Source: Bacillota bacterium (GTDB lineage: Bacteria > Bacillota > Sulfobacillia > JAJYWN01). Taken from it: DNA of 64,000 nucleotides. Below the pieces are notes generated by a model that saw only the letters and a list, made by a program, of their open reading frames with translations, did no database searches and had not been told where the DNA came from. The translations under genes and the position numbers were made by a program. Shown here one piece after another: positions 28,014-57,148 of this stretch. The DNA is taken from contig JAJYWN010000064.1 in the NCBI GenBank assembly GCA_021791495.1, positions 10,139 to 74,138 on the forward strand, written 5' to 3'. Positions within the stretch are counted from its first letter, which is position 1, and every line of letters begins with the position of its first letter.

Positions 28014-28463
28014 ATGGAAAATTGCCCAGCCTGTGGAGTCAGGGGCAAACCGGTGCGAGCCGTCACGTTGCGCGCCCTAGTCAAAGAGGAGCAACAGGGC
28101 CGCATCGGTCCGGGGCGCTATCGTTTCTGTGCCACCAAGGGGTGCGCTGTCATCTACTTCGCCGAAGACGGTAGCGGCGTGATCGAGAAAGAGGCCCTGA
28201 AGGTAAGGGTCGGCGTCAAGGAGTCCGAACCACCGCGTCCAGTGTGCTATTGCTTCGGTCACACCATCGAGGAAATCGTCGAGGAGGCGCGGCGCCTCGG
28301 GCGCAGCCTGATTCTGGACGATATCCGGGAGCGGGTTGAGCGCGAGGGGTGTCACTGTGAAGAGACAAACCCTCAAGGCTCATGCTGTCTGGGTGTGATC
28401 ACCAGGATCGTGGAAGAGGCCCAGCGACAGAGAGCGGTCGAACGCGGGAGCTTGCCGAACTGA
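28014..28463 (+). CDS. putative metal-binding protein (N-terminal CPxCG zinc ribbon plus a BFD-like Cys cluster domain; CopZ-associated family)
   Basis: Cys motifs CPACG, CYC and CHC...CC. Confidence 0.5.
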   Translation: MENCPACGVRGKPVRAVTLRALVKEEQQGRIGPGRYRFCATKGCAVIYFAEDGSGVIEKEALKVRVGVKESEPPRPVCYCFGHTIEEIVEEARRLGRSLILDDIRERVEREGCHCEETNPQGSCCLGVITRIVEEAQRQRAVERGSLPN

Positions 28464-31467: not shown

Positions 31468-33492
31468 TCAGACGCCTGCTTGGAGGTCAGGTGTCCTACT
31501 TCTCTTTTGACTGCCAACATTGCTTCCAGTTCGCTTTCCTTGAAGAAGGACGAATCGAAAGTGGGTGATCCGACAATTTCGGGCGGAACTCATGTTCACG
31601 AAGAACGGTATGACCGTAATGACCACTCCCTCGGCGTACCGAAGCTCCCTCAGCATCTGGTCGACCGTGCCGTTATGCAAATAGTCGTCGAACGGCTCGC
31701 TGGTCACCACCGCCGGGATCAGCAGGTTGATGAGTGTCTCTGGATGCTCGCGGTGTACCTGGCCCAAGTAGGTCTGGAGTGGGCCGACGACGTCGCGGTA
31801 CGGAGACGGCAAGACCACCAGGGGCACCCCTCCGTGGCGCCGCAGGTCCCATTTCTTCTGGTACTTCTCACCCAAATCCGGTTCGGCCGCCACGTAGACG
31901 GCGGTGATATCCTTGGATATCCGCCGGGCCACGCGCAGGGAGTGATCGATTACGGGGCTGAGGCCGCCGATGGTCATGACGACCTTCACCGCTTTGGCAT
32001 CGTCCATGGGCAAGTGTTCGTGGAGCAGGCCTTCCACGCTTTCCCGGAATCTGGCGTAGTACCGGTGGACGTAGGTGAAGTACGCCAGGATCAGCGGGAT
32101 CAGGACCAAGACGATCCAGGCGCCGTGGGTGAACTTGGTCACGGCGATGACCACCAACACCGTTCCGCTGAGCAGGGCGCCCAGCCCGTTCAGGAAGAGG
32201 GACCACCCGTGCCGCCAGATGGACTCGGCCCTCTGTCGGGCCTGTTTCACCCAGTGCACGACCATCCCCGTCTGCGACAAGGTGAACGCGGCGAATACGC
32301 CGACCGCATACAGCGGGATGAGCAGGTGCGTGCTACCCCGGAACAGGACGATGAGCGCCGAGGCCAGCCCGGCCAAGAGCAGGATACCGGAGTTGAAAAC
32401 CAGCGTGTCACCGCGGTTCGTCAGGCGGCGCGGCAGGTAACCGTCGCGGGCGATGAACCCGGATAGTCGCGGGAAATCGGCGTAGGCCGTATTAGCGGCC
32501 AGGAGCAGGATCATGGCCGTGGTCGCCTGAACGATGTAGTAGAAGACGCCGGTCCCGCCGAAGACCTCGCGGGCCACCTGGCTCACCACCGTCTCCCCCT
32601 CCTTGGGAACGGCGCCGAAGCCGAAGGCCAGGATGGTTATGCCGGCAAACATGGTGTAAAGAAGTGTCCTCTCCAAGCCCATGGTCCTGACGGCGTTGCG
32701 GGTCTCCGGGGCGCGGAAAGCCTGAACGCCGTTGGAGATGGCTTCCAGCCCCGTTAGCGCCGTGCACCCGGAGGAGAAGGCCCGGAGCAGTAAGAACAGG
32801 GTGACTCCATTCGCCATTTGCCGGAAGGCCTGGCTGCCGCCACCGATACCAAAGGCGGACCAGGGGCTGACGGCCGGGTGCCAGTCGCCGGCGGCGGCCC
32901 GGATGAGCCCGAAAACGATCATCGCCAAGATGCTGAGAATGAAGCCATACGTGGGCACGGCGAAGATGGCCCCCGACTCGCGTACGCCACGCAGATTGAC
33001 CCAGGCGATAAGCCAGATGACGATGAGGGATAGAACTACTTCCTGGCCGCGGAGAGACGGGACGGCCGAAGTTATGGCGGCGACGCCGGCCGCGGCGGAG
33101 ACGGCGACGGTGAGGACATAGTCGACCAAGAGCGACGCTCCCGCCACCAGCCCCGCCTTGATCCCGAGGTTGTCTTTCGAGACGATGTAGGAACCGCCGC
33201 CCGAGGGGTAGGCGTGGATGGTCTGGGTGTAGGATGCCGCCACGATCATGACCAAGGCGACGATGCCCAAACCGACGGGAAGGGAGTAGGCCGCCGCCGC
33301 CGTCCCGGCAGCCATCAGCACCCACATGATTTCCTCGGTAGCGTAAGCCACGGAGGAAAGACCGTCGGCACTGAACACAGCAAGACCAGACGCTACACTG
33401 AGTCGTTCCAGGTGCTGCTGATCGGTGCGTTTGGGTGGGCCGAACAGCAGGCGCTTGAAACGGCGCACCCGTACACTGGTGGGACCAAACAT
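31468..33492 (-). CDS. APC-superfamily amino acid permease with a C-terminal extension (the ORF track start is 33558; the preferred ATG at 33492 has a GAGGAGG RBS)
   Basis: Twelve or more TMS and APC motifs (AYPSGGGSY). Confidence 0.75.
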   Translation of the reverse strand: MFGPTSVRVRRFKRLLFGPPKRTDQQHLERLSVASGLAVFSADGLSSVAYATEEIMWVLMAAGTAAAAYSLPVGLGIVALVMIVAASYTQTIHAYPSGGGSYIVSKDNLGIKAGLVAGASLLVDYVLTVAVSAAAGVAAITSAVPSLRGQEVVLSLIVIWLIAWVNLRGVRESGAIFAVPTYGFILSILAMIVFGLIRAAAGDWHPAVSPWSAFGIGGGSQAFRQMANGVTLFLLLRAFSSGCTALTGLEAISNGVQAFRAPETRNAVRTMGLERTLLYTMFAGITILAFGFGAVPKEGETVVSQVAREVFGGTGVFYYIVQATTAMILLLAANTAYADFPRLSGFIARDGYLPRRLTNRGDTLVFNSGILLLAGLASALIVLFRGSTHLLIPLYAVGVFAAFTLSQTGMVVHWVKQARQRAESIWRHGWSLFLNGLGALLSGTVLVVIAVTKFTHGAWIVLVLIPLILAYFTYVHRYYARFRESVEGLLHEHLPMDDAKAVKVVMTIGGLSPVIDHSLRVARRISKDITAVYVAAEPDLGEKYQKKWDLRRHGGVPLVVLPSPYRDVVGPLQTYLGQVHREHPETLINLLIPAVVTSEPFDDYLHNGTVDQMLRELRYAEGVVITVIPFFVNMSSARNCRITHFRFVLLQGKRTGSNVGSQKRSRTPDLQAGV

Positions 33493-33520
33493 GCTTCTTT
33501 GAAGGCCTCCTCGTCTTGCG

Positions 33521-33565
33521 CTCCACCCGGGAAAAGCAAAAGAAAACGGACCACCCAAAGGGGTC
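33521..33565 (-). terminator. terminator/attenuator-like hairpin (GGACGACCCC / GGGTGGTCC) followed by TTTTCTTTTGCTTTT, in the permease leader
   Basis: Seen on the minus strand just upstream of the permease start. Confidence 0.4.
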
Positions 33566-33854
33566 GTCCGTTTGTTTGCGCCGCGGGCGGCTCCTTCGAC
33601 CGACGCCTACGAGGTTAGCTGACGGGTTGGGGCAGTCGAAGTCGCCCCTCCGCTTACGGCGGATTCACCCCAGGGAATTGGGTCCCCCGTTCCTTTTCAG
33701 GATTCGGCGTTTACGGGATGAAACTGTATACCTGCACGGTTTGTGCTGTAAAGGTTCAATGTCACCCTTGTCGTTTCCTTCTTGTTGTAGCTGCGCCTTT
33801 GGCTCACCTGGCACGTGTCATGAAGCACTTCTCGGTCGTTGTAAAGGAAAATCG

Positions 33855-33895: not shown

Positions 33896-33902
33896 TCGCT
33901 TG

Positions 33903-33977
33903 TGCGCCCGGCAGGATTCGAACCTGCGACCTCCAGATTCGTAGTCTGTCACTCTAATCCAACTGAGCTACGGGCGC
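33903..33977 (-). tRNA. tRNA-Arg (anticodon ACG)
   Basis: Manual cloverleaf: acceptor GCGCCCG, anticodon loop CTACGAA, T-arm GGTTCGAATCC, discriminator A. Confidence 0.8.
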
Positions 33978-33985
33978 ATATCCGG

Positions 33986-34076
33986 CGGAGAGAGAGGGAT
34001 TCGAACCCTCGCTGGAGTGAACACCCCACTAACGGTTTAGCAAACCGTCCCCTTCAGCCGACTTGGGTATCTCTCC
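33986..34076 (-). tRNA. tRNA-Ser (anticodon GCU)
   Basis: Acceptor GGAGAGA, anticodon loop TTGCTAA, a long variable arm, and T-arm GGTTCGAATCC. Confidence 0.8.
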
Positions 34077-34157: not shown

Positions 34158-35660
34158 TTAACGCTTAACTATAATAGCACAGCCACGCGTCGAAAACAAG
34201 CAAACGCCGCCGCCGGAGTCTGTCAAGCTAATGTGGGAGCTTCGGTAGTCGAAGGTTTTCAAAGACCTGCTGGAAGTGTTTGGTTGATCTTGTGAAAAAA
34301 GCTTTGAGAGTCCGTGCGAAGCATTAGCTCCGGCTCCCATGATCGGCACGTTGCCCTTCACTGAGGCTAGCGCCGTGTTTGTCAGGTCAAAGGTGATTCT
34401 TCGGACGCCCTCTTTGAGACTTTCGGTTTCCATCAATCCGCGGACCGCCGCCACTTGGTGTGCATAGGCCCTCAGCCGGCCCTCGAAACGCTGCCCTAGC
34501 GCCCGCAGGATGGCTCTTAGCCCTTCTTGCCCCCAACTCTGGCCCCTGCCTTGCAGCCGCCGTTTGAACCGGGCCACGTTGGACTCCGCGGCTCCCAAAG
34601 CCCGGAGGCCCGTCACGTCCACGCCCTTCTCCCGGAGCCGCATGCGGTAATCCACCAGGCCCTGCGGGTAGCTTGCCAAATCCTCTATCAGGTTTAGCAG
34701 CTCTTTGTCCTTGGGGGCTTTCTCCTGGGCCCGACAGAGCGCCGCCAGAACCTGGTCGGGATTGTCGCCCTCTAGGCCCCGCCGCGCCGCCTCCTGTTCC
34801 TCTGGGAAGAGCCTCAAAAGCCTCTTGAAGTCCCGTTTCAAGTGGAACCGGTCGAACTGGTACATCGCATGGTGAAAGTACTCCATGCCTTCCCGGATCC
34901 ACTTGGCTCGGTCGCCGTTAATAGCCACCCATGTGTCGGCGAGATCGTATTCGCTGTACAGTTTGCGGCTGCCCGTCTCCCAGAAGTCCTCCCCGGCACC
35001 GTCGTCCACGTAGTGGCGCCGGTGGACCAGCGAATACTCCTTCCCTGACGGGCTTTTCCTCTCCCAGCCCTCATGGGACGTCAGCTTCTTAGTCTCTTGT
35101 TTTGGCGCGCCCTGCCGGGACACGTACAGGCCGTCGGCCTCGATTAGCAGCACCGGGACCTTCCGTTCTCCGGCCGGGTCCGCCAGTTCCCGCTTCAGAT
35201 CCTCGCCAATGGCGTCTCCGACCTCCAACACTCTCTGCCGGATGGTCTCGTGGCTCACCGGCGGATACTCGTAAATCCGCTCCAGGCTGTCCCTTGCCGC
35301 CCGATAGGACGCGCCTTCCACACCTTCCAAAACAGCCACCTCGACCAGACCCGGACTCAGCCGCTCCCGCTTCTCTAGCCCCAACGCCTCGTCCAGGAGG
35401 GCCACGATCTGGCCTGTCTCCCGGTCCAGATAAGTCCGCCTGCTGAACCGCAGCTTCCCAAACAACGTGTCTATCTCTCGTGAACGCAAGTCCTTGGCCT
35501 GGTATCGCTCCTTGTCCCGGCTCTTGAGCAGCGACCCGTCCAGAAACTCCAGCACTTGCTCCAGCACTTTGACCAACAGGGCGCTAAGCATCCTGAATGC
35601 TTCTCTCTCCAAAACTGAAAACGAAAAGGAACTCGGGGTGGATTCCGTGAAGATTGCCAC
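34158..35660 (-). mobile_element. ISLre2-family (UPF0236) transposase gene; IS ends not determined (approx 34100-35950)
   Basis: A 500-aa ORF resembling ISLre2-family transposases. It is inserted next to the tRNA genes. Confidence 0.6.
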
Positions 35661-35991
35661 GGGACGAGTTAGTGCCTCCTTCAGTGTGGAGTCTCAGCAA
35701 CCCAACACTTCGGAGCAGGCCTTCCTCGTCCCTCCTCTCTTCTCAGAACCTTCCTCTACTCCCTAACCCCTTCCCACATAAACCTTACAGTCTCCCGCCG
35801 CCGCGAACACCGCTCCCGCGTCTCACGTATCTCACGAGACAGCGCCAGTGGCCGGCGGTCCCGTCGAAAGGATATCCGAGCAACTGAGCTGGGTGCAAAA
35901 TCCTTAGAATCTCCAATATTTGTTCACCATTGTGTGATTAGAATAGGCTCAGGGTCGAAGCCAAGCCCCAGGTAGGTATGACACCGCAAAT

Positions 35992-36441
35992 GTGGGACGG
36001 AGTGATGAGGAGATGTGTCGAGGGCACGGTTGGTGGCTGTTCGCCGTGGGCGTGTTGCTGCTGTTCGGGCTGTTCGGACCTGGCGCGTGGCTGTTTGGAG
36101 GGATGGGTGGAATGATGGGGCGTTACTGGGGTCCCGGTTATGGGTACGGGCCGTCCGCAGGCTGGTACATGCCTTTTGTTGGTTTGTTCTTCATCTTCCT
36201 GGTAGCCGCCGGCATCTTCTTGCTGGTCCGGCTCTTCAGCCGCCGGGATTACGGCTCTCACGCCCAGCACCTGGATGGGCCAATGATGCACGGCTGCATG
36301 GGTGGCATGCACAGCATGGACGGCATGGATGGTCACTCCACAGCTGCCGGGGAGACTCCTCTCGAAATCGTGAAGAAGCGTTACGCTCGGGGCGAGATCA
36401 CGAAAGAGGAGTTCGACACCATCAGACGCGATCTCCAGTGA
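35992..36441 (+). CDS. SHOCT-domain membrane protein with a Met/His-rich putative metal-binding segment
   Basis: N-terminal TM helices, MHGCMGGMHSMDGMDGH, and a C-terminal SHOCT motif (LEIVKKRYARGEITKEEFDTIRRDL). Confidence 0.65.
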   Translation: MGRSDEEMCRGHGWWLFAVGVLLLFGLFGPGAWLFGGMGGMMGRYWGPGYGYGPSAGWYMPFVGLFFIFLVAAGIFLLVRLFSRRDYGSHAQHLDGPMMHGCMGGMHSMDGMDGHSTAAGETPLEIVKKRYARGEITKEEFDTIRRDLQ

Positions 36442-36448
36442 TGGTGGT

Positions 36449-36766
36449 CTAGAACGCGCCGAGGACCTGGTCCGAGCCTTCCATGATCATCGCGACCAGG
36501 TCCCCATAGGTGCCACTCGCGCAGCCGGGGATGAGCGAAGCCTCGTCGAACCCCCGGAGTCTCAAATCGCCTGTTATGACCAGGACGCGCTCATACTTCT
36601 CGGCCGACAGCCCCAGTCCGGCCGCGGTGGCGGCCAAGGTGGCGTCTTCCAAGAGCGCCAAAGTGACCCTATGCCCCTGCTCGGTCAAGTCGGAGGCCAA
36701 AGCGAAGGCCCGCCGCGCGCCCTCCGAGGTCGGGCTGCTGCAAACCAGCACGGCGATTCTCTTCAT
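36449..36766 (-). CDS. DsrH/TusB-like sulfur relay protein
   Basis: A DsrE/F/H-fold protein about 105 aa long, third in the E-F-H gene order. Confidence 0.6.
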   Translation of the reverse strand: MKRIAVLVCSSPTSEGARRAFALASDLTEQGHRVTLALLEDATLAATAAGLGLSAEKYERVLVITGDLRLRGFDEASLIPGCASGTYGDLVAMIMEGSDQVLGAF

Positions 36767-36805
36767 CTGTTCATGCCCTTCCTTCGTTTCATACCCGTCC
36801 TCCCG

Positions 36806-37174
36806 CTAGAAACGCAGCAGGTGCCGGGTGGACGCGACAAGCCGGGCCAATTCGGCGTCATCGACTTCTTCCACGCCCGGTATCAAGTCTCGGGCCGCCA
36901 GGCCCCGCCTTGCCAAGCTCGGCCCGTGAACGAAGATTCGCGGGTCCAACGCCGGAGAAAGCTTCCGGACACCAGAAAGCACATCCGATAGAGAAGCGAA
37001 GCCACTGGTCCCCGGAGTTTGCCCGGCCCGCGCCAGCCACACCCCGTCGTCCACCAGCACCGCCACGGCGCGTACCCCGTTATTCAGCGCCCCGTTCAGG
37101 TGCCGGACGCCCTCCGCGGCGGAGACGGTACCGTACGGCGCCCGGGAAATCAGGATACAGACGGAGTTCTCCAC
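36806..37174 (-). CDS. DsrF/TusC-like sulfur relay protein
   Basis: A DsrE/F-family protein about 122 aa long, in the middle position. Confidence 0.6.
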   Translation of the reverse strand: MENSVCILISRAPYGTVSAAEGVRHLNGALNNGVRAVAVLVDDGVWLARAGQTPGTSGFASLSDVLSGVRKLSPALDPRIFVHGPSLARRGLAARDLIPGVEEVDDAELARLVASTRHLLRF

Positions 37175-37186
37175 AGCTTCCCCTCC

Positions 37187-37621
37187 CTATTGCCCCAAGG
37201 CGATGAGAGCCTGGCTTTCCGATAGCGCGGTGAAGAGTCCTTTCAAGGAACTCGGTTGGGTACTCGGAACGCGCATCTCCTCCGCGCGCAGGTTGCGGAG
37301 GGTCAAACATGACCCGCATAGGTCGACGCATAGGCCCTTCTCGATCAAGCCGGGCAGCCTTTCTCCCACCAAGGGAAGGCCGGCGGCCTTCTGCTTGCTC
37401 ATCACGCTATAGACCCCGTCGGCCGAGGCGAACAGGTTCACCCGGAACCCTTTCTCCAGCGCCGCCTCAGCTAGGTTAAGGGCTGTATGGGCGGCCTGGG
37501 AGCCAAAGGGGGTACCCGTGAGGAAAATGGTCAGCGTCTTGTGGACATCGTTCCTGTCTTGACGTTCTTCCATCTGCATCTCCCCGCCCAACCGGCTTCG
37601 CGTCGACCCGCCTTCGGCCAT
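37187..37621 (-). CDS. DsrE/TusD-like sulfur relay protein (conserved Cys in CGSC)
   Basis: DsrE-family sequence (TIFLTGTPFGSQ...). The start may be internal (MQMEERQ). Confidence 0.65.
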   Translation of the reverse strand: MAEGGSTRSRLGGEMQMEERQDRNDVHKTLTIFLTGTPFGSQAAHTALNLAEAALEKGFRVNLFASADGVYSVMSKQKAAGLPLVGERLPGLIEKGLCVDLCGSCLTLRNLRAEEMRVPSTQPSSLKGLFTALSESQALIALGQ

Positions 37622-37680
37622 CCGGCGAAGCCAGTTCTTTCGGTTGGTTGCAGTCTAACATCCCAAACGGTATACTACAA

Positions 37681-37709
37681 ATGCATCATTTGCCTTCTTT
37701 CGATGCAGT
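37681..37709. promoter_or_regulatory. palindrome ATGCATC-N14-GATGCAT in the divergent dsrE/lysR intergenic region (candidate LysR-type operator)
   Basis: Seen directly. It lies 24 nt upstream of the lysR ATG. Confidence 0.4.
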
Positions 37710-37732
37710 TCACGCATAGGAGAAGACGGGTT

Positions 37733-38668
37733 ATGGAGATCTATCGCCTCGAGACTTTCCGCCGATTGGCCCGCGCCCTGAACTTTTCCCGGACGGCGGA
37801 GGAACTGTCGCTGAGCCAGTCGGCGGTGTCCAGACACATCGAAGCCCTAGAGCGGGAACTTGGGATGAGGCTGTTTACGCGAAACGGCCGGGAAGTCGCC
37901 CTGACCGAGGCCGGATCTCGTCTGCTGGACTACGCCGAACGCATCCTGGATCTGGCGGGCGAAGCCACCCGGGCGCTGGCGGAATTGAAGAACCTTGAGA
38001 GCGGCGAGTTGTGGGTTGGGGCCAGCACCACGCCCGGCAACTACCTCTTGGGGCCGGTGATTGCCGCCTACCAGCAGCGTTATCCGGGGGTGGAGCTACA
38101 CCTGAATATCGGCGATTCCCAGTCGGTCCTGCGCGAGGTGGAGGAAGGTGCCATCGACGTGGGTGTCCTTGGTTTTCCACCCCGCACGGCCGGGGTCGAG
38201 ATCGAGCCCTACGTCCGAGACGAGCTCGCTTTGGTGATGTCACCGCGCCACCCTCTCGCTGGTCTCCTGGAGATCCGGGCATCCGACCTTGGGACGACGC
38301 GCCTTCTGGTCCGTGAGCAGGGCTCCAATTCCCGCCGGTCTGTGGAGGAACACCTCCGTAACCGGGGCTTCCAGCCCGTACACCTCGGTGAGCTGGGCAG
38401 TACGGAAGCGATCAAGAACGCCGTCGCCGCGGGAGCGGGCGTGGCGTTTCTGCCGCGTTGTGCTGTCGACTTGGAGATCCGAGCAGGCATCTTGGTGGCC
38501 GGGACCGGCGCCGACTGCGTAATCGGGCGACAACTGGTGCTGGCCTACCCCAAGGGACGCCGGCGACCACCGGCCGCGCTGGCCTTTGCGGCTCTCCTGC
38601 GGAAGATTCGTTCCGGCGCGGAGGTAACGGAAAGGCCAGAAGCAGACGCATCTCGGAAAGGGGACTGA
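37733..38668 (+). CDS. LysR-family transcriptional regulator
   Basis: It begins at MEIYRLETFRRLARALNFSRTAEELSLSQSAVSRHIEALE (HTH) with AGGAGAAG upstream. The ORF track's upstream extension was rejected. Confidence 0.85.
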   Translation: MEIYRLETFRRLARALNFSRTAEELSLSQSAVSRHIEALERELGMRLFTRNGREVALTEAGSRLLDYAERILDLAGEATRALAELKNLESGELWVGASTTPGNYLLGPVIAAYQQRYPGVELHLNIGDSQSVLREVEEGAIDVGVLGFPPRTAGVEIEPYVRDELALVMSPRHPLAGLLEIRASDLGTTRLLVREQGSNSRRSVEEHLRNRGFQPVHLGELGSTEAIKNAVAAGAGVAFLPRCAVDLEIRAGILVAGTGADCVIGRQLVLAYPKGRRRPPAALAFAALLRKIRSGAEVTERPEADASRKGD

Positions 38669-38673
38669 CCCCC

Positions 38674-39720
38674 ATGGACAACCTTCCGCCTATCCGGCTC
38701 ACTTCGTACTCGCCCGGCAGCGGCTGAGCCTGCAAGGTCGGCCCGGCCGACTTGGCGCAGGTCCTGCGCCACCTTCCGCCCGTGTCCGATCCCCGGTTCA
38801 TGGGGAAGATAGGCGACGATGCGGTGGTGTACCGCCTTTCCGATGATCTGGCCATCGTGCAGACCGTGGACTATATCACCCCGGTGCTGGATGACCCATA
38901 CTCTTTTGGTCAGGTGGCCGCGGCCAACGCCTTGAGTGACGTCTACGCCATGGGAGCCACCCCCTTGTTCGCGCTGAACCTGATCGGGTTCCCCGTGCGA
39001 GACCTGCCCCTGGCCCACATGGAGCAGATCCTCCTGGGTGGCGCCGCTAAGGTGGCCGAGGCCGGGGCGGTGGTCGCCGGCGGCCATTCCGTCGATGACC
39101 CTTCGCCCAAGTTCGGATTGGCCGTGACCGGGTTGGTGCACCCCGACCGGCTGGTGACCAAGGCCGGCGGGCGCCACGGGGACATGCTCTTCCTCACCAA
39201 GCCGCTGGGGAGCGGGGCGGTCGTCACCGCCCTGGACCGCGGTCTGGCGGGGAAGGATGCCGAGTCCGCCGTGTTCCCGCTCATGAGCGCCTTGAACCGC
39301 GGCGCCGCCGAGGCCATGCTCCGGGTGGGGGCAGCGGCCTGTACGGACGTGACGGGGTTCGGTCTCTTGGGTCACCTACACGAGCTGGCCAAAGCCAGCG
39401 GGCTGTCCGCGCGGGTCCAAGCGTCCGCCATTCCGGTGCTGCCCGAAGCGCGCGGTCTTCTCGAGCTGGGTGCCGTCTCCGACGGTACCCGCCGGAACGT
39501 GCGTTTTCTGAGGGATCTCGTGGATTGGGGGCCGGAGGTCTCGGAGGAAGACCGCTTGATGCTCAGTGATGCACAGACCTCCGGAGGGCTCTTGATCGCG
39601 GTGGCGGAGGAGAAGCGGGACGCGATGGCCGTTGCCCTCAGGGAGGAGGGCTGCCTGGCCTGGGACGAAATCGGCCGGCTGGTCGAGGGCCCCGCGGGGC
39701 GCTTACTGGTGGTTGACTAG
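38674..39720 (+). CDS. selD: selenide, water dikinase SelD (selenophosphate synthetase), a selenocysteine-containing form with an in-frame UGA at 38725..38727
   Basis: The ATG at 38674 and the M at 38752 are in the same frame and separated only by a TGA. The translation MDNLPPIRLTSYSPGSG-U-ACKVGPADLAQVL aligns with the SelD catalytic G-x-G-[C/U]-x-CK motif. The rest is an AIR-synthase-like fold. Confidence 0.75.
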
Positions 39721-41238
39721 GCTCCGGCTCTTCCCGTGACCGGAGCGGACCAGGGAGACAACCACGCCGACCAATCCCAGCAGCGCACCGACCCGGAACA
39801 CCTTGGTGAACGCCGACAAGAACAGCCCTTGATCGAAGGCGATCGCCGCCGAGGTCGCCGTGGCGGCGGCCGCCGCCCCCGCCCAGGCCGCGAAGAGCGA
39901 TGCCGCCATGGCTGTGCCCGCCATCTGCCCGATATTTCTCACCGTGGCGATAAGACTGCTGGTGATGCCCACCTTCGTCCGGGGGACGGCGCCCATGATC
40001 GAGCTGTTATTGGGCGAGTTAAAGAAGGCGATGCCGAGGCCCAGGAGCCCCAGCCGGGCGATGACCGCCCAGGAGGTGCTGTGGGCGCCCAATCCGCCGA
40101 TGAGGAACATTGCGGCCCCCATCAGCCCCATGCCAAGCGTGGTGGGCACCATGTATCCGATACGGTCCGACATCCAGCCGGCCAGGGGTGAGGTCACCGT
40201 AGTCATCAGCGGGGTCGGCACCATCAACAGTCCCACGGCGGCGGGGCTGTACCCGAGGATGCGTTTGAGGTAAAAGGGCATGAGGATGATGTTAAAGTAC
40301 TGAATCACGTAGAGTAAGAACCCCGTGACATTTCCCAGCGCGAACACCGGCGACCGGAAGAGCGACAAGTCGATCATGGGCGCCTTGGTCCGCCCCTCGC
40401 GCCATAGGAATGAGCCCACAGCCAACGCGGCGGCGGCCATCGCCGCCAAAGCCCTGGGCGAACCCCAGCCCCAGGCCGGCGCTTCAGACAGAATCACCAG
40501 AAGGAGCACCACGAAGGCGCCGAAGGAGGCGGCCCCAGGATAATCGAAGGGCTCATGCCGGCTCTTTCTCTCGTCCGGCATGAGCAGCGCCGCCGCCAGC
40601 ACCCCCCCGATGATCCCGATGGGGAAATTGATCCAGAAAACAGACCTCCATCCAAAAGCGGCGATCAAGAGACCGCCGGCCGCCGGTCCGGACATGGTCC
40701 CGGCCGCGGCCATGGACGAAAGGAGGCCCAGTCCGCGTCCCCGTTCTTCGACCGGGAACGCCAGCGTCACCAAAGCCATGTTCGTGGCCATCAACATCCC
40801 GCCGCCCACCGCCTGCACCAGCCGGAAAGCCAGAAGGAGAGGGAAGTTGCCGGCGAACCCGGCCGATGCTCCCAGTGTGTAGAGGACGCATCCCATGGTG
40901 AAGACGCGTTTCCGGCCGATCTGGTCGCTGAGGCGACCGAACATGGGTAGGAGGGCGGAGATCAGTAGCAAGAAGAGGCTAACCACCAGCTGAACGCGGT
41001 TGATGCCCACATGCAGGTCGGCGGCCATATAAGGGAGCGCCACGCTGACGATGCCCGCGCTCATCATGTTTCCGAAGGCGCTGATAGCGGCGACCGCCAG
41101 CACGATCCAGCGGTAGGCCGGTTTGGGATGCAGTTCTTCGCGCAGGCCGGCATAGCGTTTCTCAAGGTTAAGCGCAGGCAACGACAAACTGGTTCCTCCG
41201 AAAACAAGAGAGCGGTCTGCCGGTTTGCTTTCCATCAA
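39703..41238 (-). CDS. MFS drug:H+ antiporter (DHA2/EmrB-like, 14 TMS)
   Basis: Fourteen predicted TMS and MFS motifs. Confidence 0.8.
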   Translation of the reverse strand: MMESKPADRSLVFGGTSLSLPALNLEKRYAGLREELHPKPAYRWIVLAVAAISAFGNMMSAGIVSVALPYMAADLHVGINRVQLVVSLFLLLISALLPMFGRLSDQIGRKRVFTMGCVLYTLGASAGFAGNFPLLLAFRLVQAVGGGMLMATNMALVTLAFPVEERGRGLGLLSSMAAAGTMSGPAAGGLLIAAFGWRSVFWINFPIGIIGGVLAAALLMPDERKSRHEPFDYPGAASFGAFVVLLLVILSEAPAWGWGSPRALAAMAAAALAVGSFLWREGRTKAPMIDLSLFRSPVFALGNVTGFLLYVIQYFNIILMPFYLKRILGYSPAAVGLLMVPTPLMTTVTSPLAGWMSDRIGYMVPTTLGMGLMGAAMFLIGGLGAHSTSWAVIARLGLLGLGIAFFNSPNNSSIMGAVPRTKVGITSSLIATVRNIGQMAGTAMAASLFAAWAGAAAAATATSAAIAFDQGLFLSAFTKVFRVGALLGLVGVVVSLVRSGHGKSRSLVNHQ

Positions 41239-41441: not shown

Positions 41442-42827
41442 TCAGCTTTGGTCTGAAACGGGGGAATGCTGGATTGCCTCAGTCAGATGGATGACCTTGA
41501 CGGCTTTTCCATCCCCGAAGAGTTTCATTCCATGCTCCAACTGTAACAAACACGACGGGCAGCTGGTAACGACGTATTCGGCGCCCGTGGCCAGGATGTT
41601 TTTCGTTTTCTTTTCCAGGAGGGCCTGTGAATCTGATTGATATTCAAGACAGAATGTTCCCGAACCGCCGCAGCAGACATCGGCGCCTTTCATCTCCACC
41701 ACCTCGTAGCCGGCGTTACACAGAACCTGACGGGGTTGGGCCTTGATACCCTGGCCGCGGCTGAGATGGCACGGGTCGTGATACGTTACCTTCGTTCTTT
41801 CGGGAGCCTCGGGGGAGCCGGATCCCGCCGGAGGCGCCGCCGGCGCCGGCTCAAGAGAAGCCAAGACTACGGAAACATCGCGAACCCGCGCGGCCAGGGA
41901 TTTCGCGGCGGATTCATGCTCGGATCCCGCCAGCCAGCGAGCGTAGTCCATCAGTGCGCTGCCGCAACTGGCACAGTCCGTGACCACCAGTTCGGGTCCG
42001 GACAGGCGGGACAGGTTGGACGCCGCCATGTTCCGGGCCCGGTCCAGGTCACCGTGACTCCAGTGAGGCAGGCCGCAGCAGGCATCATCAACCACGACCA
42101 CTTGATAGCCGGCATCACGCAGGGTGGCGGTGGTGGCCCGCATCACTTCCGGGTAACTTAGGCGGACGAAACAGCCGGCGAGATACCTGATCTTGCCACG
42201 TGACGGCACGGCCGAGCTTCTCCTGGCTCTGTCGCTACCGCCGACGGACCGGGTCTTGCCCTTGTTCGGACGGCCGTTGTCGCCGCCGAATGGCCGGCGA
42301 CCAGGCAGAAGGTCCGCTACGTCGGCTAAGCGGTGCAGAACGGGCTTGAGGACGGCCTTCTCCGCGAGCGGACGGATGGCCGATCGCGCGTAGGCTCGGA
42401 CCAATGGTCCGGCAAGACTGACCAGCTTGGGCCGGGCCAGAAAACCATCGACGGCCCGGAGCATTGCGGGGCGGCCGGTCACGCCGGCTAATTGGCCCTT
42501 GGCCAGGGAAACTAGCTCGTCGGTACGTATCTTGCTTGGGCAGGCATTGGTGCACGCTCGGCACTGAAGGCAGAAATCGAGCCTGGCGAACAGGTCCGGC
42601 GCCGGCGAGACCGCGCCCTCAAGCAGGCCTCGAACAAGGGAGACCTTCCCACGGGCGGATGCGGTCTCCCGGCCGGTCTCCTCGAAAAGAGGGCAAACCG
42701 GAAGGCACGACCCGCACCGGTCACACTGCCCGGCCATGTTCGCGATGCGCTGGAGAAGAGCCTCACGCGCGGCGGTCACCCTCGGTGCGGCGGCCGCGTC
42801 CGGTGCTGTCACAGATGGAGTGCTCAT
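41442..42827 (-). CDS. glcF: Fe-S oxidoreductase subunit (GlcF / HdrD-like: N-terminal 2x[4Fe-4S] plus CCG cysteine-rich domains)
   Basis: CxxCxxCxxxCP motifs and C-terminal CCG motifs. Confidence 0.75.
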   Translation of the reverse strand: MSTPSVTAPDAAAAPRVTAAREALLQRIANMAGQCDRCGSCLPVCPLFEETGRETASARGKVSLVRGLLEGAVSPAPDLFARLDFCLQCRACTNACPSKIRTDELVSLAKGQLAGVTGRPAMLRAVDGFLARPKLVSLAGPLVRAYARSAIRPLAEKAVLKPVLHRLADVADLLPGRRPFGGDNGRPNKGKTRSVGGSDRARRSSAVPSRGKIRYLAGCFVRLSYPEVMRATTATLRDAGYQVVVVDDACCGLPHWSHGDLDRARNMAASNLSRLSGPELVVTDCASCGSALMDYARWLAGSEHESAAKSLAARVRDVSVVLASLEPAPAAPPAGSGSPEAPERTKVTYHDPCHLSRGQGIKAQPRQVLCNAGYEVVEMKGADVCCGGSGTFCLEYQSDSQALLEKKTKNILATGAEYVVTSCPSCLLQLEHGMKLFGDGKAVKVIHLTEAIQHSPVSDQS

Positions 42828-44371
42828 TCGAAAATCTTCCCTGGGTTAAGAATGCCGTTGGGGTCGAGGGCATGCTTCACCGCGCGAAGGGCGCGCACCC
42901 CCTCTTTACCGAGGGCCTCCTCGATGAAGGGTTTCTTGGTGATGCCGATACCGTGCTCTCCCGACAGGGTGCCACCCACTTCAAGGGCGGCACGAAATAC
43001 CTCGGCCACGGCCTGGTCGACGCGTTCTCTAGCCCCCGCCTCACTGAGGTCGGCCAAAATGGAAGGGTGAAGATTCCCGTCCCCGGCGTGCCCGAACACG
43101 GCGATGGTCAGCCCGTGCTTGCGGCCGATTTCTCCGAGCCGCCGGATCATTTCCGGAAGTGCGGCCCGAGGGACACTGATGTCCTCTCCGATCTTGTTCT
43201 TGGCTATGGCCGCCACCGCTGGGCCCATGGTGCGCCGAAGCACCCACAGTTCGTCGGCTTCGGCCGAGGTCTGAGCCACGCTTACCTGAACGGCCTGGTG
43301 CTGGCGGGCCATCTCCGTCACCGCCCCGGCCTGATCGTCCAAGAGTATCTGAGGACCGTCTATGTCAATGAGCAGAGCGGCCTCGGCCTCGACCGGAATG
43401 TCGACCTTGCGGAAACGCGCCACTGCCTGAATACTGGTCTTGTCCATGATTTCGGCCGAGGCGGGTACGATGCCCGAAGAGAGCATGTCGGTGACACATT
43501 CTGAGGCGTCGTCGATAGACCCGAACATGAGAAGCAGGGTTTTCTTGGCCTTTGGCTTGGAAATAAGGCGGACGAGGATCTTCGTGATCACTCCCAGGGT
43601 GCCCTCAGACCCCACGAACAGATGAGTCAGATCATACCCGGTGACGTTCTTGACGGCTTTGCCGCCGGTGTCAATGACCGCTCCGTTCGCCAGGACGACT
43701 TGAAGGCCAAGGACGTAGTCTTTGGTGACGCCGTATTTCACGGCGCGGGCGCCGCCGGCGTTCTCCGCAACATTGCCGCCCATGGTACTCACGGTCCAGC
43801 TGGAAGGATCCGGGGGGTAGAAGAGCCCCACGTCCTCTACGGCCCGGCCGAGGTCCATGGTGCGAACCCCTGGTTCAACGAGGGCCATCATGTTCTTGCG
43901 GTCAATCTCGAGAATGCGGTTCATCCGCTCGAGGCTCAGGACGACTCCACCGTTCACTGGAATCGACCCGCCGGTCCGGCCGCTGCCGGCCCCCCGTGGA
44001 ACAAGGGGGACGCGGTGATCATTGCAAAGACGGACAATCCTGACGACCTCCCCGACATCCCGCGGAAAGACGACCACATCAGGACGGTGAGCCGGCACGA
44101 GCGGGAGGAAAGAACCGTCATAGGAGTAGGTGAAGCGGTCGTTGTCCACATCGAGTAAGCGGTCTGGCCCCACGATGGCGGCCAGCGCTTGGTGCAGCTG
44201 GTCTGGTAGCATGTCTTGGTTCACCCCATTCACGTACGGCTCGAGATCAATCCGGATGTCCTGCCTTTCTGGCAGGACTATAGGGAGCGTGCAACTGGTC
44301 GTGAACAGGCCTCCCTGGTGGAACTGCCGCCCGGTCGGGACCCGGCGACGGGACGCCCGACCGGGCGGCAT
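42824..44371 (-). CDS. glcD: FAD-linked oxidase (glycolate oxidase GlcD / D-lactate dehydrogenase-like)
   Basis: FAD-binding PCMH domain (GAGSGRTGGS) and the C-terminal oxidase domain. Confidence 0.8.
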   Translation of the reverse strand: MPPGRASRRRVPTGRQFHQGGLFTTSCTLPIVLPERQDIRIDLEPYVNGVNQDMLPDQLHQALAAIVGPDRLLDVDNDRFTYSYDGSFLPLVPAHRPDVVVFPRDVGEVVRIVRLCNDHRVPLVPRGAGSGRTGGSIPVNGGVVLSLERMNRILEIDRKNMMALVEPGVRTMDLGRAVEDVGLFYPPDPSSWTVSTMGGNVAENAGGARAVKYGVTKDYVLGLQVVLANGAVIDTGGKAVKNVTGYDLTHLFVGSEGTLGVITKILVRLISKPKAKKTLLLMFGSIDDASECVTDMLSSGIVPASAEIMDKTSIQAVARFRKVDIPVEAEAALLIDIDGPQILLDDQAGAVTEMARQHQAVQVSVAQTSAEADELWVLRRTMGPAVAAIAKNKIGEDISVPRAALPEMIRRLGEIGRKHGLTIAVFGHAGDGNLHPSILADLSEAGARERVDQAVAEVFRAALEVGGTLSGEHGIGITKKPFIEEALGKEGVRALRAVKHALDPNGILNPGKIFE

Positions 44372-56194: not shown

Positions 56195-57148
56195 TCAGTC
56201 GTCGTGGACAACGCGATCTGTCCCGCCGGCACCCATTTCGGCTCGGACCGCTTCCACCTCGGCGTTGTCGAAGTTGTACCGGTCGCCGCAGAAGCGGCAG
56301 ACAAGCTCGGTCCCTTCGCCCTTGGCGATGATGTCGTCGATCTCCTGGCGTCCCAGGGTGGCGAGGAGCCCCCGCGCCTTCTCACGGGAGCAGGGGCAGA
56401 AGTACGAGAGGGAGCCGTGCTCCAGGATTTCGGGGTGCAAACCCTTCAGCACTGTCTCCAGGATATCCTCCGGCGTGGCGCCATCGTCGATGGCGTGACT
56501 GATGGATGAAATGGAGGCCAGGTTTTGCTCCAGGTCGGCCAAGCGTTCCTTCAGGTAGACCTCGTCGTCTCCGCCGTCCTTCTCCGGGAGGAGTTGCACG
56601 ATGATGCCGCCCGCGGCGCGAACGCTTTCGTCCGGGTCCACGAGCACGCCGAGGCCCACGGCGGATGGGGTCTGCTCTGAGCGGGTGAAGTATGAGGCCA
56701 GGTCAATGGCGATCTCCCCCGACACCAGGGGCGCGCTGCCGGTGTAAGGCTCCTTCAGGCCCAGGTCTTTGGTGACATGGATGAAGCCCTTGCGGCCCAC
56801 GGCCATGCCCACGTTGAGTTTTCCGGGCCCCATCAGCTCCATCTCGGCATTGGGGTTCTGGAGGTAACCGCGGACCCGGCCGAGAGCATCGGCCACGGAG
56901 ATGATGCCGCCCGTGGGGCCGCCTCCGTCAATGCGCATAGTCACCGTCTGGTCGTCCTTTAGCGTCGTCCCGATGAGGGCCGTGGCGGTCAAGGTCCGAC
57001 CCAGGGCGGCGGTGGCCACCGGCGACGTGCCGTGGCGGCGCCGGGCCTCGTCCACCAGCTGGGATGTGCGCCCGACGAGGACGCGGAGGCGCCCATCGCG
57101 GTCGGCGGCACGGAGGTAATAGTCGGCATGATTCGGGTGTTTGTCCAT
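56195..57148 (-). CDS. hslO: redox-regulated chaperone Hsp33
   Basis: Hsp33 fold and a C-terminal CxC...CxxC zinc centre. Confidence 0.85.
   Translation of the reverse strand: MDKHPNHADYYLRAADRDGRLRVLVGRTSQLVDEARRRHGTSPVATAALGRTLTATALIGTTLKDDQTVTMRIDGGGPTGGIISVADALGRVRGYLQNPNAEMELMGPGKLNVGMAVGRKGFIHVTKDLGLKEPYTGSAPLVSGEIAIDLASYFTRSEQTPSAVGLGVLVDPDESVRAAGGIIVQLLPEKDGGDDEVYLKERLADLEQNLASISSISHAIDDGATPEDILETVLKGLHPEILEHGSLSYFCPCSREKARGLLATLGRQEIDDIIAKGEGTELVCRFCGDRYNFDNAEVEAVRAEMGAGGTDRVVHDD

Follow-up and report, generated by a model that had tools for sequence, protein, structure and literature searches.

A DsrEFH-like gene trio linked to a LysR-type regulator and selD in Bacillota and Chloroflexota: a tentative persulfide/perselenide carrier

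The route by which selenium reaches selenophosphate synthetase (SelD) is a long-standing question, and it is raised by a locus in a 64,000-nucleotide stretch of Bacillota DNA (assembly GCA_021791495.1, contig JAJYWN010000064.1, positions 10,139 to 74,138; hereafter the window). In this locus three small genes of DsrE-, DsrF- and DsrH-like type, named here E, F and H and together the trio, are transcribed divergently from a LysR-type regulator gene that is followed by a selD of the selenocysteine (Sec) type. The Km of SelD for selenide lies within the toxic range, and selenium-delivery proteins have been proposed for bacterial SelD without the matter being settled; none of the suggested carriers (rhodanese, GAPDH, 3-MST, thioredoxin) has a genetic link to selD (PMC8538045). 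In mammals, PRDX6, which as a Cys-perselenide carrier takes selenium from Sec lyase on to SEPHS2, became known only in 2024 (PMC11327102). The answer favoured here, tentatively and at somewhat less than even confidence, is that the trio is a LysR-controlled persulfide/perselenide carrier coupled to SelD, its selenium chemistry being proposed from the evidence set out below. It is offered as a specific, purifiable candidate carrier, a sulfur-relay-type complex with a reactive CxxC that is tied genetically to selD in two phyla. Full-text literature searches brought up no account of a three-gene complex of DsrEFH type with a link to selD, and nothing relevant on DsrEFH with selenophosphate or on YchN with cysteine desulfurase.

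The genes of the trio lie on the minus strand of the window and are read as E (37187-37573, 128 aa), F (36806-37174, 122 aa) and H (36449-36766, 105 aa). A spacer of 159 bp separates E from the regulator gene (37733-38668, plus strand, 311 aa; stop codon 38666-38668), and selD (38674-39720) follows on the same strand; a gene for a membrane protein with a SHOCT domain is convergent with the H gene. The initial annotation had described this gene set, with the order E-F-H divergent from LysR, and gene coordinates and family scans agree with it throughout, except that the ATG of selD at 38674 leaves a gap of 5 nt after the LysR stop codon instead of the 6 given there.

The association recurs well beyond the window. 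A one-genome-per-species scan together with exact-protein look-ups gave 28 non-redundant trio loci (numbered L001 and so on where they have to be told apart), 27 of which have enough flanking DNA to be informative; crude calling of open reading frames (ORFs) in loci of high GC content gave artefactual ones on the opposite strand (clusters c13 and c14), which were disregarded. Of the 27 informative loci, 12 have both a LysR gene and a Sec-type selD at no more than ~2.3 kb from E, and the in-frame TGA is found in all 12. Eight of them belong to Symbiobacteriaceae-type Bacillota, namely the window, Caldinitratiruptor microaerophilus (a cultured host with a complete genome, AP025628.1), a Symbiobacteriaceae metagenome-assembled genome (MAG), three Bacillota MAGs and two metagenome contigs, and four belong to Chloroflexota. 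The Bacillota loci form one clade in the trees of E and of E plus F, and the Chloroflexota loci represent two lineages nested among loci that are devoid of selD. The order of the genes varies: lysR-selD diverges from E-F-H in seven loci including the window, lysR, selD, a methyltransferase gene and E-F-H follow one another in the Symbiobacteriaceae MAG, and lysR diverges from a selD-E-F-H series in the four Chloroflexota loci, with a small YgaP-like transmembrane (TM) gene intervening once. Neither chance nor plain inheritance would be expected to preserve such a linkage through rearrangements in two phyla. Lack of a conserved neighbourhood had been named beforehand as grounds for giving up the selenium relay to SelD that the initial annotation suggested; the neighbourhood proved to be conserved, in 12 of 27 loci from two phyla and in three gene orders.

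As to the kind of proteins involved, E and F belong to the DsrE/DsrF-like superfamily (PF02635/PF04077), with PF02635 scores of 54.9 and 36.6 bits, respectively, against a Pfam cutoff of 22.7. H is a marginal member, its Pfam matches lying near threshold (DsrE, 22.3 versus 22.7; DsrH, 17.7 versus 24.4), and its orthologues in other genomes have PF04077 on record; no NCBIfam model matches the H-like protein. A profile of 26 E homologues compared with the PDB retrieved YchN as best match (2.3e-10), followed by DsrE (1.4e-5) and TusD (4.6e-5), and in these alignments the first Cys of the E motif pairs with the Cys of DsrE (VVCVAAAQRRG; Cys78) and with that of TusD. Within the motif, LCG[S/T]CL, residues L87, C88, G89 and C91 are invariant and S90 is near-invariant (S or T) among the 26 sequences; these numbers, including Cys88 and Cys91 as used below, are those of the 130-aa alignment, the window protein having 128 aa. 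The AlphaFold2 (AF2) model of E (pLDDT 83) places the CxxC at a strand-to-helix junction and was matched by Foldseek to YchN (3.9e-8; TM 0.76/0.84) and DsrE (2.1e-6), with a probability of 1.00 for YchN, DsrE and DsrF. An exhaustive search of 1.84 billion cluster representatives with a hidden Markov model of E showed close relatives to be few, with only 4 clusters at an E-value <= 1e-30 and 170 at <= 1e-10; the CxxC is present in 111 of the 149 best E-family representatives, and most of the wider relatives carry CxxC-xxx-R as YchN does. By motif, position and closest solved relative, E is a member of the YchN-like CxxC branch, and it is the probable carrier subunit.

The two other subunits have no conserved cysteine. 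F has DsrF (2hy5_B) as best PDB match (E-value 3.9e-4) and conserves the motifs AAE..RH..GA, DDGV and PS...RG, with no invariant Cys in its alignment. The top PDB sequence match of H is DsrH (2hy5_C), weak at an E-value of 0.16, and its AF2 model (pLDDT 76), built on a shallow alignment for which a word-index homology search gave 4 proteins, has a DsrEFH chain as best Foldseek match, also weak (2.8e-3); the alignment of 15 H-like proteins contains no invariant Cys. Paralogues of F- and H-like type go with E in every case, in the order F then H wherever the contig allows (28 loci). Judged from these sequences, the trio appears to be a small distinct subfamily, a predicted complex of three subunits, the reactive one of which derives from the YchN/CxxC branch of the DsrE superfamily. 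It is unnamed, with no NCBIfam model to designate it, and under current models it is wrongly labelled TusD/TusC or, generically, 'DsrE family protein'.

An ordinary TusBCD of tRNA 2-thiouridine synthesis, or a classical DsrEFH, standing near selD by chance would share the canonical E/D-F/C-H/B order and the Pfam DsrE matches, and some databases do name homologues 'tRNA 2-thiouridine synthesizing protein D'. This explanation is judged extremely improbable. E scores 23.0 bits with the TusD model NF001237 (cutoff 92) and 22.0 with TIGR03012 (cutoff 89), and F scores 30.9 with the TusC model TIGR03010 (cutoff 94) and 20.4 with NF001238 (cutoff 79), scores on which a TusBCD identity was rejected; YchN precedes TusD and DsrE as the best solved relative of E, and H has no conserved Cys. 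Neither dsrAB nor dsrC occurs within 6-10 kb of any locus or in the annotated part of the window, tusA, tusE and mnmA are absent from the neighbourhoods listed, and what is conserved there is linkage to selD or to sulfide:quinone oxidoreductase (SQR). The possibility that the trio is a true TusBCD, named at the outset as the other ground for dropping the relay, was in this way turned down. A relationship to YedF (TIGR03527), which the initial annotation had invoked as the link between DsrE-like domains and selenium, found no support at the sequence level and was rejected as well: E, F and H have no match to the model at an E-value <= 0.01 and no SirA domain.

The selD gene of the window is clearly of the Sec type. 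Its product scores 365 bits with the equivalog TIGR00476 (cutoff 125) and 328.9 bits, above cutoff, with NF002098, and residue 18 is a Sec encoded by the in-frame TGA at 38725-38727 in the context GSG-U-ACK; a TGA within GxG-U-ACK is present in 11 of 11 aligned selD genes (the window and 10 orthologues) and also in L030. Downstream of it, a pair of hairpins resembling a selenocysteine insertion sequence (SECIS) lies inside the gene (38735-38770, plus strand). The second hairpin, GGCGCAG-GUC-CUGCGCC (38754-38770), has a GGUC-containing apex that we take to be of the type known from bacterial SECIS elements, e.g., that of E. coli fdhF. For the 11 selD genes RNAalifold gave a consensus structure of 15 pairs at -20.6 kcal/mol, in which the second stem is almost invariant; the covariation term is ~0 and hence uninformative, and the conservation of the hairpin cannot be attributed to RNA alone because the region also encodes the conserved peptide ADLAQVLR. 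In the public record GCA_027420595.1 (DAIBIV010000026.1) selD is annotated as 306 aa with a start after the Sec codon, which drops the N-terminal 42 residues including the catalytic GSG-U-ACK loop, and several related loci suffer a like truncation.

The regulator is a regular LysR protein (HTH_1, 74.6 bits; LysR_substrate, 179.6 bits) whose top NCBIfam model is NF040786, LysR_Sec_metab. The score, 224.6 bits, is under the curated cutoff of 250, and orthologues score similarly (L003, 225.6; L001, 207.7). Adjacency to selA, selB or selD, which characterizes the proteins of this model, is found both in the window and in 11 other loci, where orthologues 42-70% identical adjoin selD; lysR and selD, 5 nt apart, are probably co-transcribed. 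The pairing of LysR with selD is already known (PMC5322559; NCBIfam NF040786), the selenium-associated LysR_Se having been linked to selA/B/D and proposed as a selenophosphate sensor (PMC5322559).

A further tie between the two transcription units is a putative regulatory module in the lysR/E intergenic region (37648-37717), recognized by its conservation across genomes. Toward lysR-selD, the plus strand of the window reads TTGCAG (37648-53)-N17-TATACT (37671-76), and toward E-F-H the minus strand reads TTGTAG (37680-75)-N17-TAGACT (37657-52). Next to these hexamers stand three GCAT half-sites, i.e., the dyad TGCATC (37682-87)-N14-GATGCA (37702-07) and a third GCAT at 37714-17. The initial annotation had reported this palindrome with arms of 7 bp; the palindrome exists but its arms are of 6 bp, the seventh position being A...G. 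The consensus for the Bacillota clade is ATGC-N8-GCAT-N13/14-AATnATGCnn-TTGTAG-N17-TAGcCT-GCAAg on the E-F-H strand and TTGCAG-N17-TATACT…GCATnAT-N13/14-ATGC-N8-GCAT on the lysR strand.

According to an anchored alignment the module is kept in all eight Bacillota genomes, in 9 copies. The intergenic version aligns across six genomes, and the pattern GCATNAT-N11-16-ATGC is found between lysR and E in L001, L006, L007, L008, L023 and L024, and it occupies the intergenic region of every divergent locus; in L003 and L005 it lies between selD and the operon formed by the methyltransferase gene and E-F-H. The Symbiobacteriaceae MAG has two copies, one between lysR-selD and a divergent NifS-like gene and another directly before the methyltransferase-E-F-H operon, the latter oriented to E-F-H as in the divergent loci. 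The significance of the palindrome derives from this conservation at the same place in eight genomes, since alone it does not exceed chance: the window has two occurrences of a relaxed pattern where 0.47 would be expected, and a count of two is also reached in 7 of 100 shuffled sequences. The second match (56886-56907, minus strand), within a 317-aa ORF (56195-57148), is probably fortuitous. The module is read here as a predicted operator for a LysR-type transcriptional regulator (LTTR) between weak back-to-back promoters, the putative promoters being assigned from conservation, and it provides a candidate operator for a selenium-associated LysR.

Put together, these elements suggest that the locus may work as one regulatory and functional unit. 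LysR would bind the GCAT/ATGC operator between the back-to-back promoters and so probably govern its own operon, lysR-selD, as well as the divergently transcribed E-F-H. Relative to the lysR promoter the operator is placed downstream, where autoregulation is possible, and relative to E-F-H it is placed just upstream of the -35 element, where activation is possible. This layout would put selD, E-F-H, the NifS-like gene and the methyltransferase gene in one regulon. By analogy with DsrEFH and TusBCD, E, F and H would form a heteromeric complex in which only E would bear reactive cysteines, those of the CxxC (LCGSC), the first at the position of the persulfide Cys78 of DsrE/TusD. At Cys88, sulfur or selenium in the zero-valent state would be taken up as a persulfide or perselenide, and Cys91 may resolve or bridge the chalcogen (S-Se-S across the CxxC), as has been suggested for the two cysteines of thioredoxin with selenite (PMC8538045). 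In the lineage of the window the complex would supply selenium to, or buffer it for, the Sec18/Cys20 loop of SelD, a transfer that is pure inference, and in relatives the selenium or sulfur would be provided by a NifS-like desulfurase/selenocysteine lyase encoded at the same locus or by a type III SQR. A more ambitious version, in which E-F-H is a dedicated bacterial selenium-delivery protein that carries Se(0), as a Cys perselenide or bridged by the CxxC, from the NifS-like lyase or from an SQR working on selenide to the SelD loop under a selenium-sensing LysR, is held to be doubtful; at its extreme, the SQR, NifS-like and methyltransferase genes travelling with the trio would constitute a selenide-handling pathway of their own.

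The partners of the trio in other genomes bring in a different explanation, namely that the trio is a generic sulfane-sulfur carrier of sulfide detoxification, in a role like that of CstA or YrkE/F/I, through which no selenium passes, its proximity to selD reflecting a shared regulation of sulfide/persulfide and selenide or a need to keep persulfide off SelD. Sulfur-only carriage that is merely co-regulated with selD is the main rival, and it is regarded as unlikely but far from negligible. A type III SQR (NF049943, 235 bits) adjoins the trio in 14-15 loci overall, mostly of Chloroflexota (L009-L015, L018, L020, L022, L023, L030-L032), and persulfide dioxygenase (PDO)-rhodanese proteins, ArsR/BigR-like regulators and major facilitator superfamily (MFS) transporters do so in 6-7 loci. 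The PDO-type protein, a metallo-beta-lactamase joined to a double rhodanese, adjoins the trio in loci without selD, and the ArsR proteins are BigR-like, one of them being fused to a rhodanese domain. In the tree the selD-linked Chloroflexota lineages are surrounded by SQR-linked ones. There is also precedent, as the DsrE, TusA and rhodanese modules of sqr-pdo clusters are thought to carry sulfane sulfur (PMC9918477). On the other hand, selD-LysR is kept in 8 of 8 Bacillota-type loci, and in 6 of these, the window among them, neither SQR nor PDO lies within reach; in the four Chloroflexota loci selD lies directly upstream of E on the same strand. One operator is common to the E-F-H and lysR-selD promoters, and the regulator is nearest to the selenium-associated LysR family, not to a persulfide sensor.

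Several loci bridge both contexts. L023 unites selD-LysR and E-F-H with a NifS-like gene and SQR; in L030 LysR is followed by selD-E-F-H and SQR, which share a strand; in L025 selD-E-F-H is followed by a NifS-like gene, a methyltransferase, a PIG-L protein and a flavoprotein, and in L017 by dioxygenase-rhodanese and MFS genes. NifS-like genes, 57-69% identical to each other, adjoin the trio in L005, L022, L023 and L025, and a further Aminotran_5 gene does so in L032; loci without selD likewise include PIG-L deacetylases, S-adenosylmethionine (SAM) methyltransferases and NifS-like class V aminotransferases among the neighbours. A module of trio, SQR, methyltransferase and NifS-like gene was not found described in the literature searched.

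The methyltransferases bear on yet another alternative, in which the trio buffers or detoxifies an excess of selenium: induced through LysR, the CxxC would sequester selenide or Se(0), which in relatives would then be volatilised by a SAM methyltransferase or exported by an efflux pump. In its favour are the toxicity of selenium intermediates, for which sequestration has been suggested (PMC8538045), and the neighbours of the trio: at least 10 loci have an adjoining UbiE/TehB-like methyltransferase, which in L005 stands between selD and E, and MFS transporters are frequent, standing beside selD in the window and in L007. Disposal as the main function is nonetheless improbable: tblastn located no methyltransferase in the window, the MFS transporter of the window (of DHA2 type, its gene overlapping the 3' end of selD on the opposite strand) is not a conserved neighbour across related loci, and the tight selD-E-F-H operon of Chloroflexota is more in keeping with supply than with disposal. 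The two roles, buffering of selenium and its delivery, are compatible and could coexist.

A role in metal handling is brought up by the SHOCT protein. Its ORF spans 35992-36441 on the plus strand, with the public start at ATG 36013 (36013-36441, 142 aa), and the public protein P0091, of 142 aa, is 100% identical to it. The initial annotation had pointed to a Met/His-rich SHOCT membrane protein flanking the trio, and such a protein is indeed encoded there: the SHOCT family assignment is firm (PF09851, 35.9 bits against a cutoff of 27; 5.5e-9), and the protein, which carries the motif PMMHGCMGGMHSMDGMDGH, has two TM segments predicted by eye, a Gly/Met-rich loop, a Met/His-rich stretch (MMHGCMGGMHSMDGMDGH) and a C-terminal SHOCT domain. 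The Met/His-rich stretch may point to binding of a soft metal or of a chalcogen. A like arrangement exists in L028, a relative whose E subunit is 89% identical, and among selD-type loci the SHOCT protein is limited to the window and L028. Elsewhere, small Met/His/Cys-rich SHOCT proteins are found near the trio in L009 and L020 (Chloroflexota) and two-TM Gly/Met-rich ones in L012, L013, L014, L020 and L022, both types being adjacent in L020. The window protein looks like a fusion of the two proteins that are separate in L020 (16794-17486; compare L009, 11173-11391), where the small cytosolic Met/His/Cys-rich protein includes MCMMCMMMHGMDHSEH.

If the trio and the SHOCT protein handled a thiophilic metal such as Cu(I), with the CxxC of E as ligand, the Met/His/Cys-rich stretches and the ArsR/SmtB-type regulators of many loci would find an explanation. 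Copper genes are also in the vicinity: the trio of the SQR-type locus L031 (7102-12360) is bordered by genes for a copper P-type ATPase, an ArsR-type regulator and CopC/CopD, and a zf_CopZ protein is encoded ~9 kb away in the window (roughly 28014-28463). This possibility is regarded as very improbable, as the ArsR proteins resemble BigR, one having the rhodanese fusion, the recurrent enzymes (SQR, PDO-rhodanese, NifS-like, SelD) are all chalcogen enzymes, and copper genes are adjacent in a single locus, on the opposite strand.

Carriage of persulfide or perselenide toward SelD, the reading preferred here, has to be set against a number of observations that weigh on the other side. Selenophosphate synthetase is not a constant companion of the trio: selD is missing from its surroundings in 15 of the 27 informative loci, and most of these carry the sulfur-specific set of type III SQR, PDO-rhodanese and ArsR/BigR-like regulator. 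It is from this, i.e., from more than half of the loci being without selD and equipped for sulfide detoxification, that the basic chemistry of the trio is concluded to be probably a generic carriage of sulfane chalcogen and not selenium-specific. No TusA/SirA or DsrC/TusE Pfam family occurs in the neighbourhoods listed. Regarding the window itself, tblastn with queries from related loci detected no NifS-like, SQR, PDO-rhodanese, ArsR, PIG-L, methyltransferase or YgaP-TM gene in the 64 kb, and with no NifS-like gene, SQR or methyltransferase at hand the proposed selenium donor is missing locally. The regulator scores below the curated cutoff of the selenium-LysR model. The promoter hexamers are weak and were missed by a generic sigma-70 scan, which gave no site in 35700-39900, both putative promoters matching at <9/12 positions. 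The SHOCT protein is treated as a recurrent accessory that goes mainly with SQR-type loci. Finally, the GCAT operator of Bacillota is absent from the intergenic regions of the Chloroflexota selD-type loci, which keep the divergent LTTR architecture with other dyads and share with the Bacillota module only TAG(a/c)CT-G. The suggestion of a selenium relay in the initial annotation comes out of this partly upheld: the linkage to selD, the distinction from TusBCD and the shared module favour it, and the lack of selenium specificity in the family and the accessory nature of the SHOCT protein do not.

The Chloroflexota lysR/selD intergenic regions (L016, 7193-7286; L025, 2597-2700; L017, 8841-8948; L030, 4843-4935) contain palindromes of their own, such as GAATA-N5-TATTC in L016, CCGATAA-G-TTATCGG in L030 and TAACT-N3-AGTTA in L017. 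To the left of the SHOCT gene of the window stands an IS-type transposase gene (UPF0236, 330 bits; 34158-35660, minus strand), preceded by tRNA-Arg (33902-33977) and tRNA-Ser (33984-34076) genes. This insertion apparently did not split a larger operon, because L028, which has no IS there, is also without the partners mentioned. Further left, a c-di-AMP riboswitch of the ydaO type (33589-33719, minus strand, 106.6 bits) lies upstream of an AA_permease_2 transporter gene (31468-33558, 674-696 aa). On the other side, just past a tRNA-Ser gene, a GlcD-like FAD-linked oxidase and a GlcF-like CCG/4Fe-4S protein are encoded (41442-44371, minus strand), and beyond them Na/sulfate-type symporter and succinyl-CoA ligase genes, with no tie to the selD locus seen.

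Among known systems, the closest in architecture are the DsrEFH of Allochromatium vinosum (2hy5) and the TusBCD of E. coli (2d1p), heterohexamers of the same three paralogous DsrE-fold subunits encoded in the same order, and F and H have DsrF and DsrH as their best PDB matches. The D-C-B order and the Cys78 of the D subunit, aligned with the Cys of LCGSC, are recovered in the 28 loci once contig ends are allowed for. In contrast to both complexes, the E subunit, a member of the YchN/CxxC branch, has a second Cys (LCGSC), and the genomic setting is one of selD-LysR or SQR/PDO instead of dsrAB or tRNA thiolation; within 6-10 kb the trio loci have no dsr cluster with dsrAB and dsrC. In A. vinosum, DsrH reportedly has a conserved Cys in addition to the Cys78 of DsrE, whereas none is invariant among the 15 H-like proteins. 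YchN of E. coli (1jx7), also of the DsrE superfamily, shares the signature with E (LCKTC...R versus LCGSC...R). YchN is a homo-oligomer, the product of a single gene, unlike E, which always occurs with distinct F- and H-like subunits, and the YchN literature searched offered no selenium or SQR context.

With respect to selenium, LysR_Se/HrsM (Lin et al., 2015, PMC5322559; NF040786) is likewise a LysR encoded immediately beside selA, selB or selD, but the target in the window is a DsrEFH-like operon, which is not described in PMC5322559, where DsrE figures only as a domain of YedF. DsrE-like domains in YedF (SirA-like plus DsrE-like, with CGxC) and the DsrE-like UxxC selenoprotein are already known and likewise represent a selenium-associated redox motif of the superfamily (PMC5322559, PMC9312934); the trio differs from YedF in having three subunits without a SirA/TusA domain instead of one fused protein. 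From the side of sulfur, CstA and YrkE-YrkF-YrkI combine a DsrE-type carrier with SQR, PDO-rhodanese and a persulfide-responsive repressor, much as the Chloroflexota trio loci do (PMC9918477), but they rely on single DsrE domains plus TusA and rhodanese, whereas the trio has three subunits, no TusA, and was recruited to selD-LysR in 12 loci. The nearest functional parallel is PRDX6, a Cys-perselenide carrier between a pyridoxal phosphate-dependent lyase and selenophosphate synthetase (PMC11327102), the very role proposed here; the fold is unrelated and the resemblance functional only, the role of the trio being inferred from gene context alone. The sets of NifS-like gene, E-F-H and selD in L005, L023 and L025 mirror SCLY-PRDX6-SEPHS2, and, if the proposal is true, the trio would be a bacterial counterpart of that system built on a sulfur-relay scaffold.

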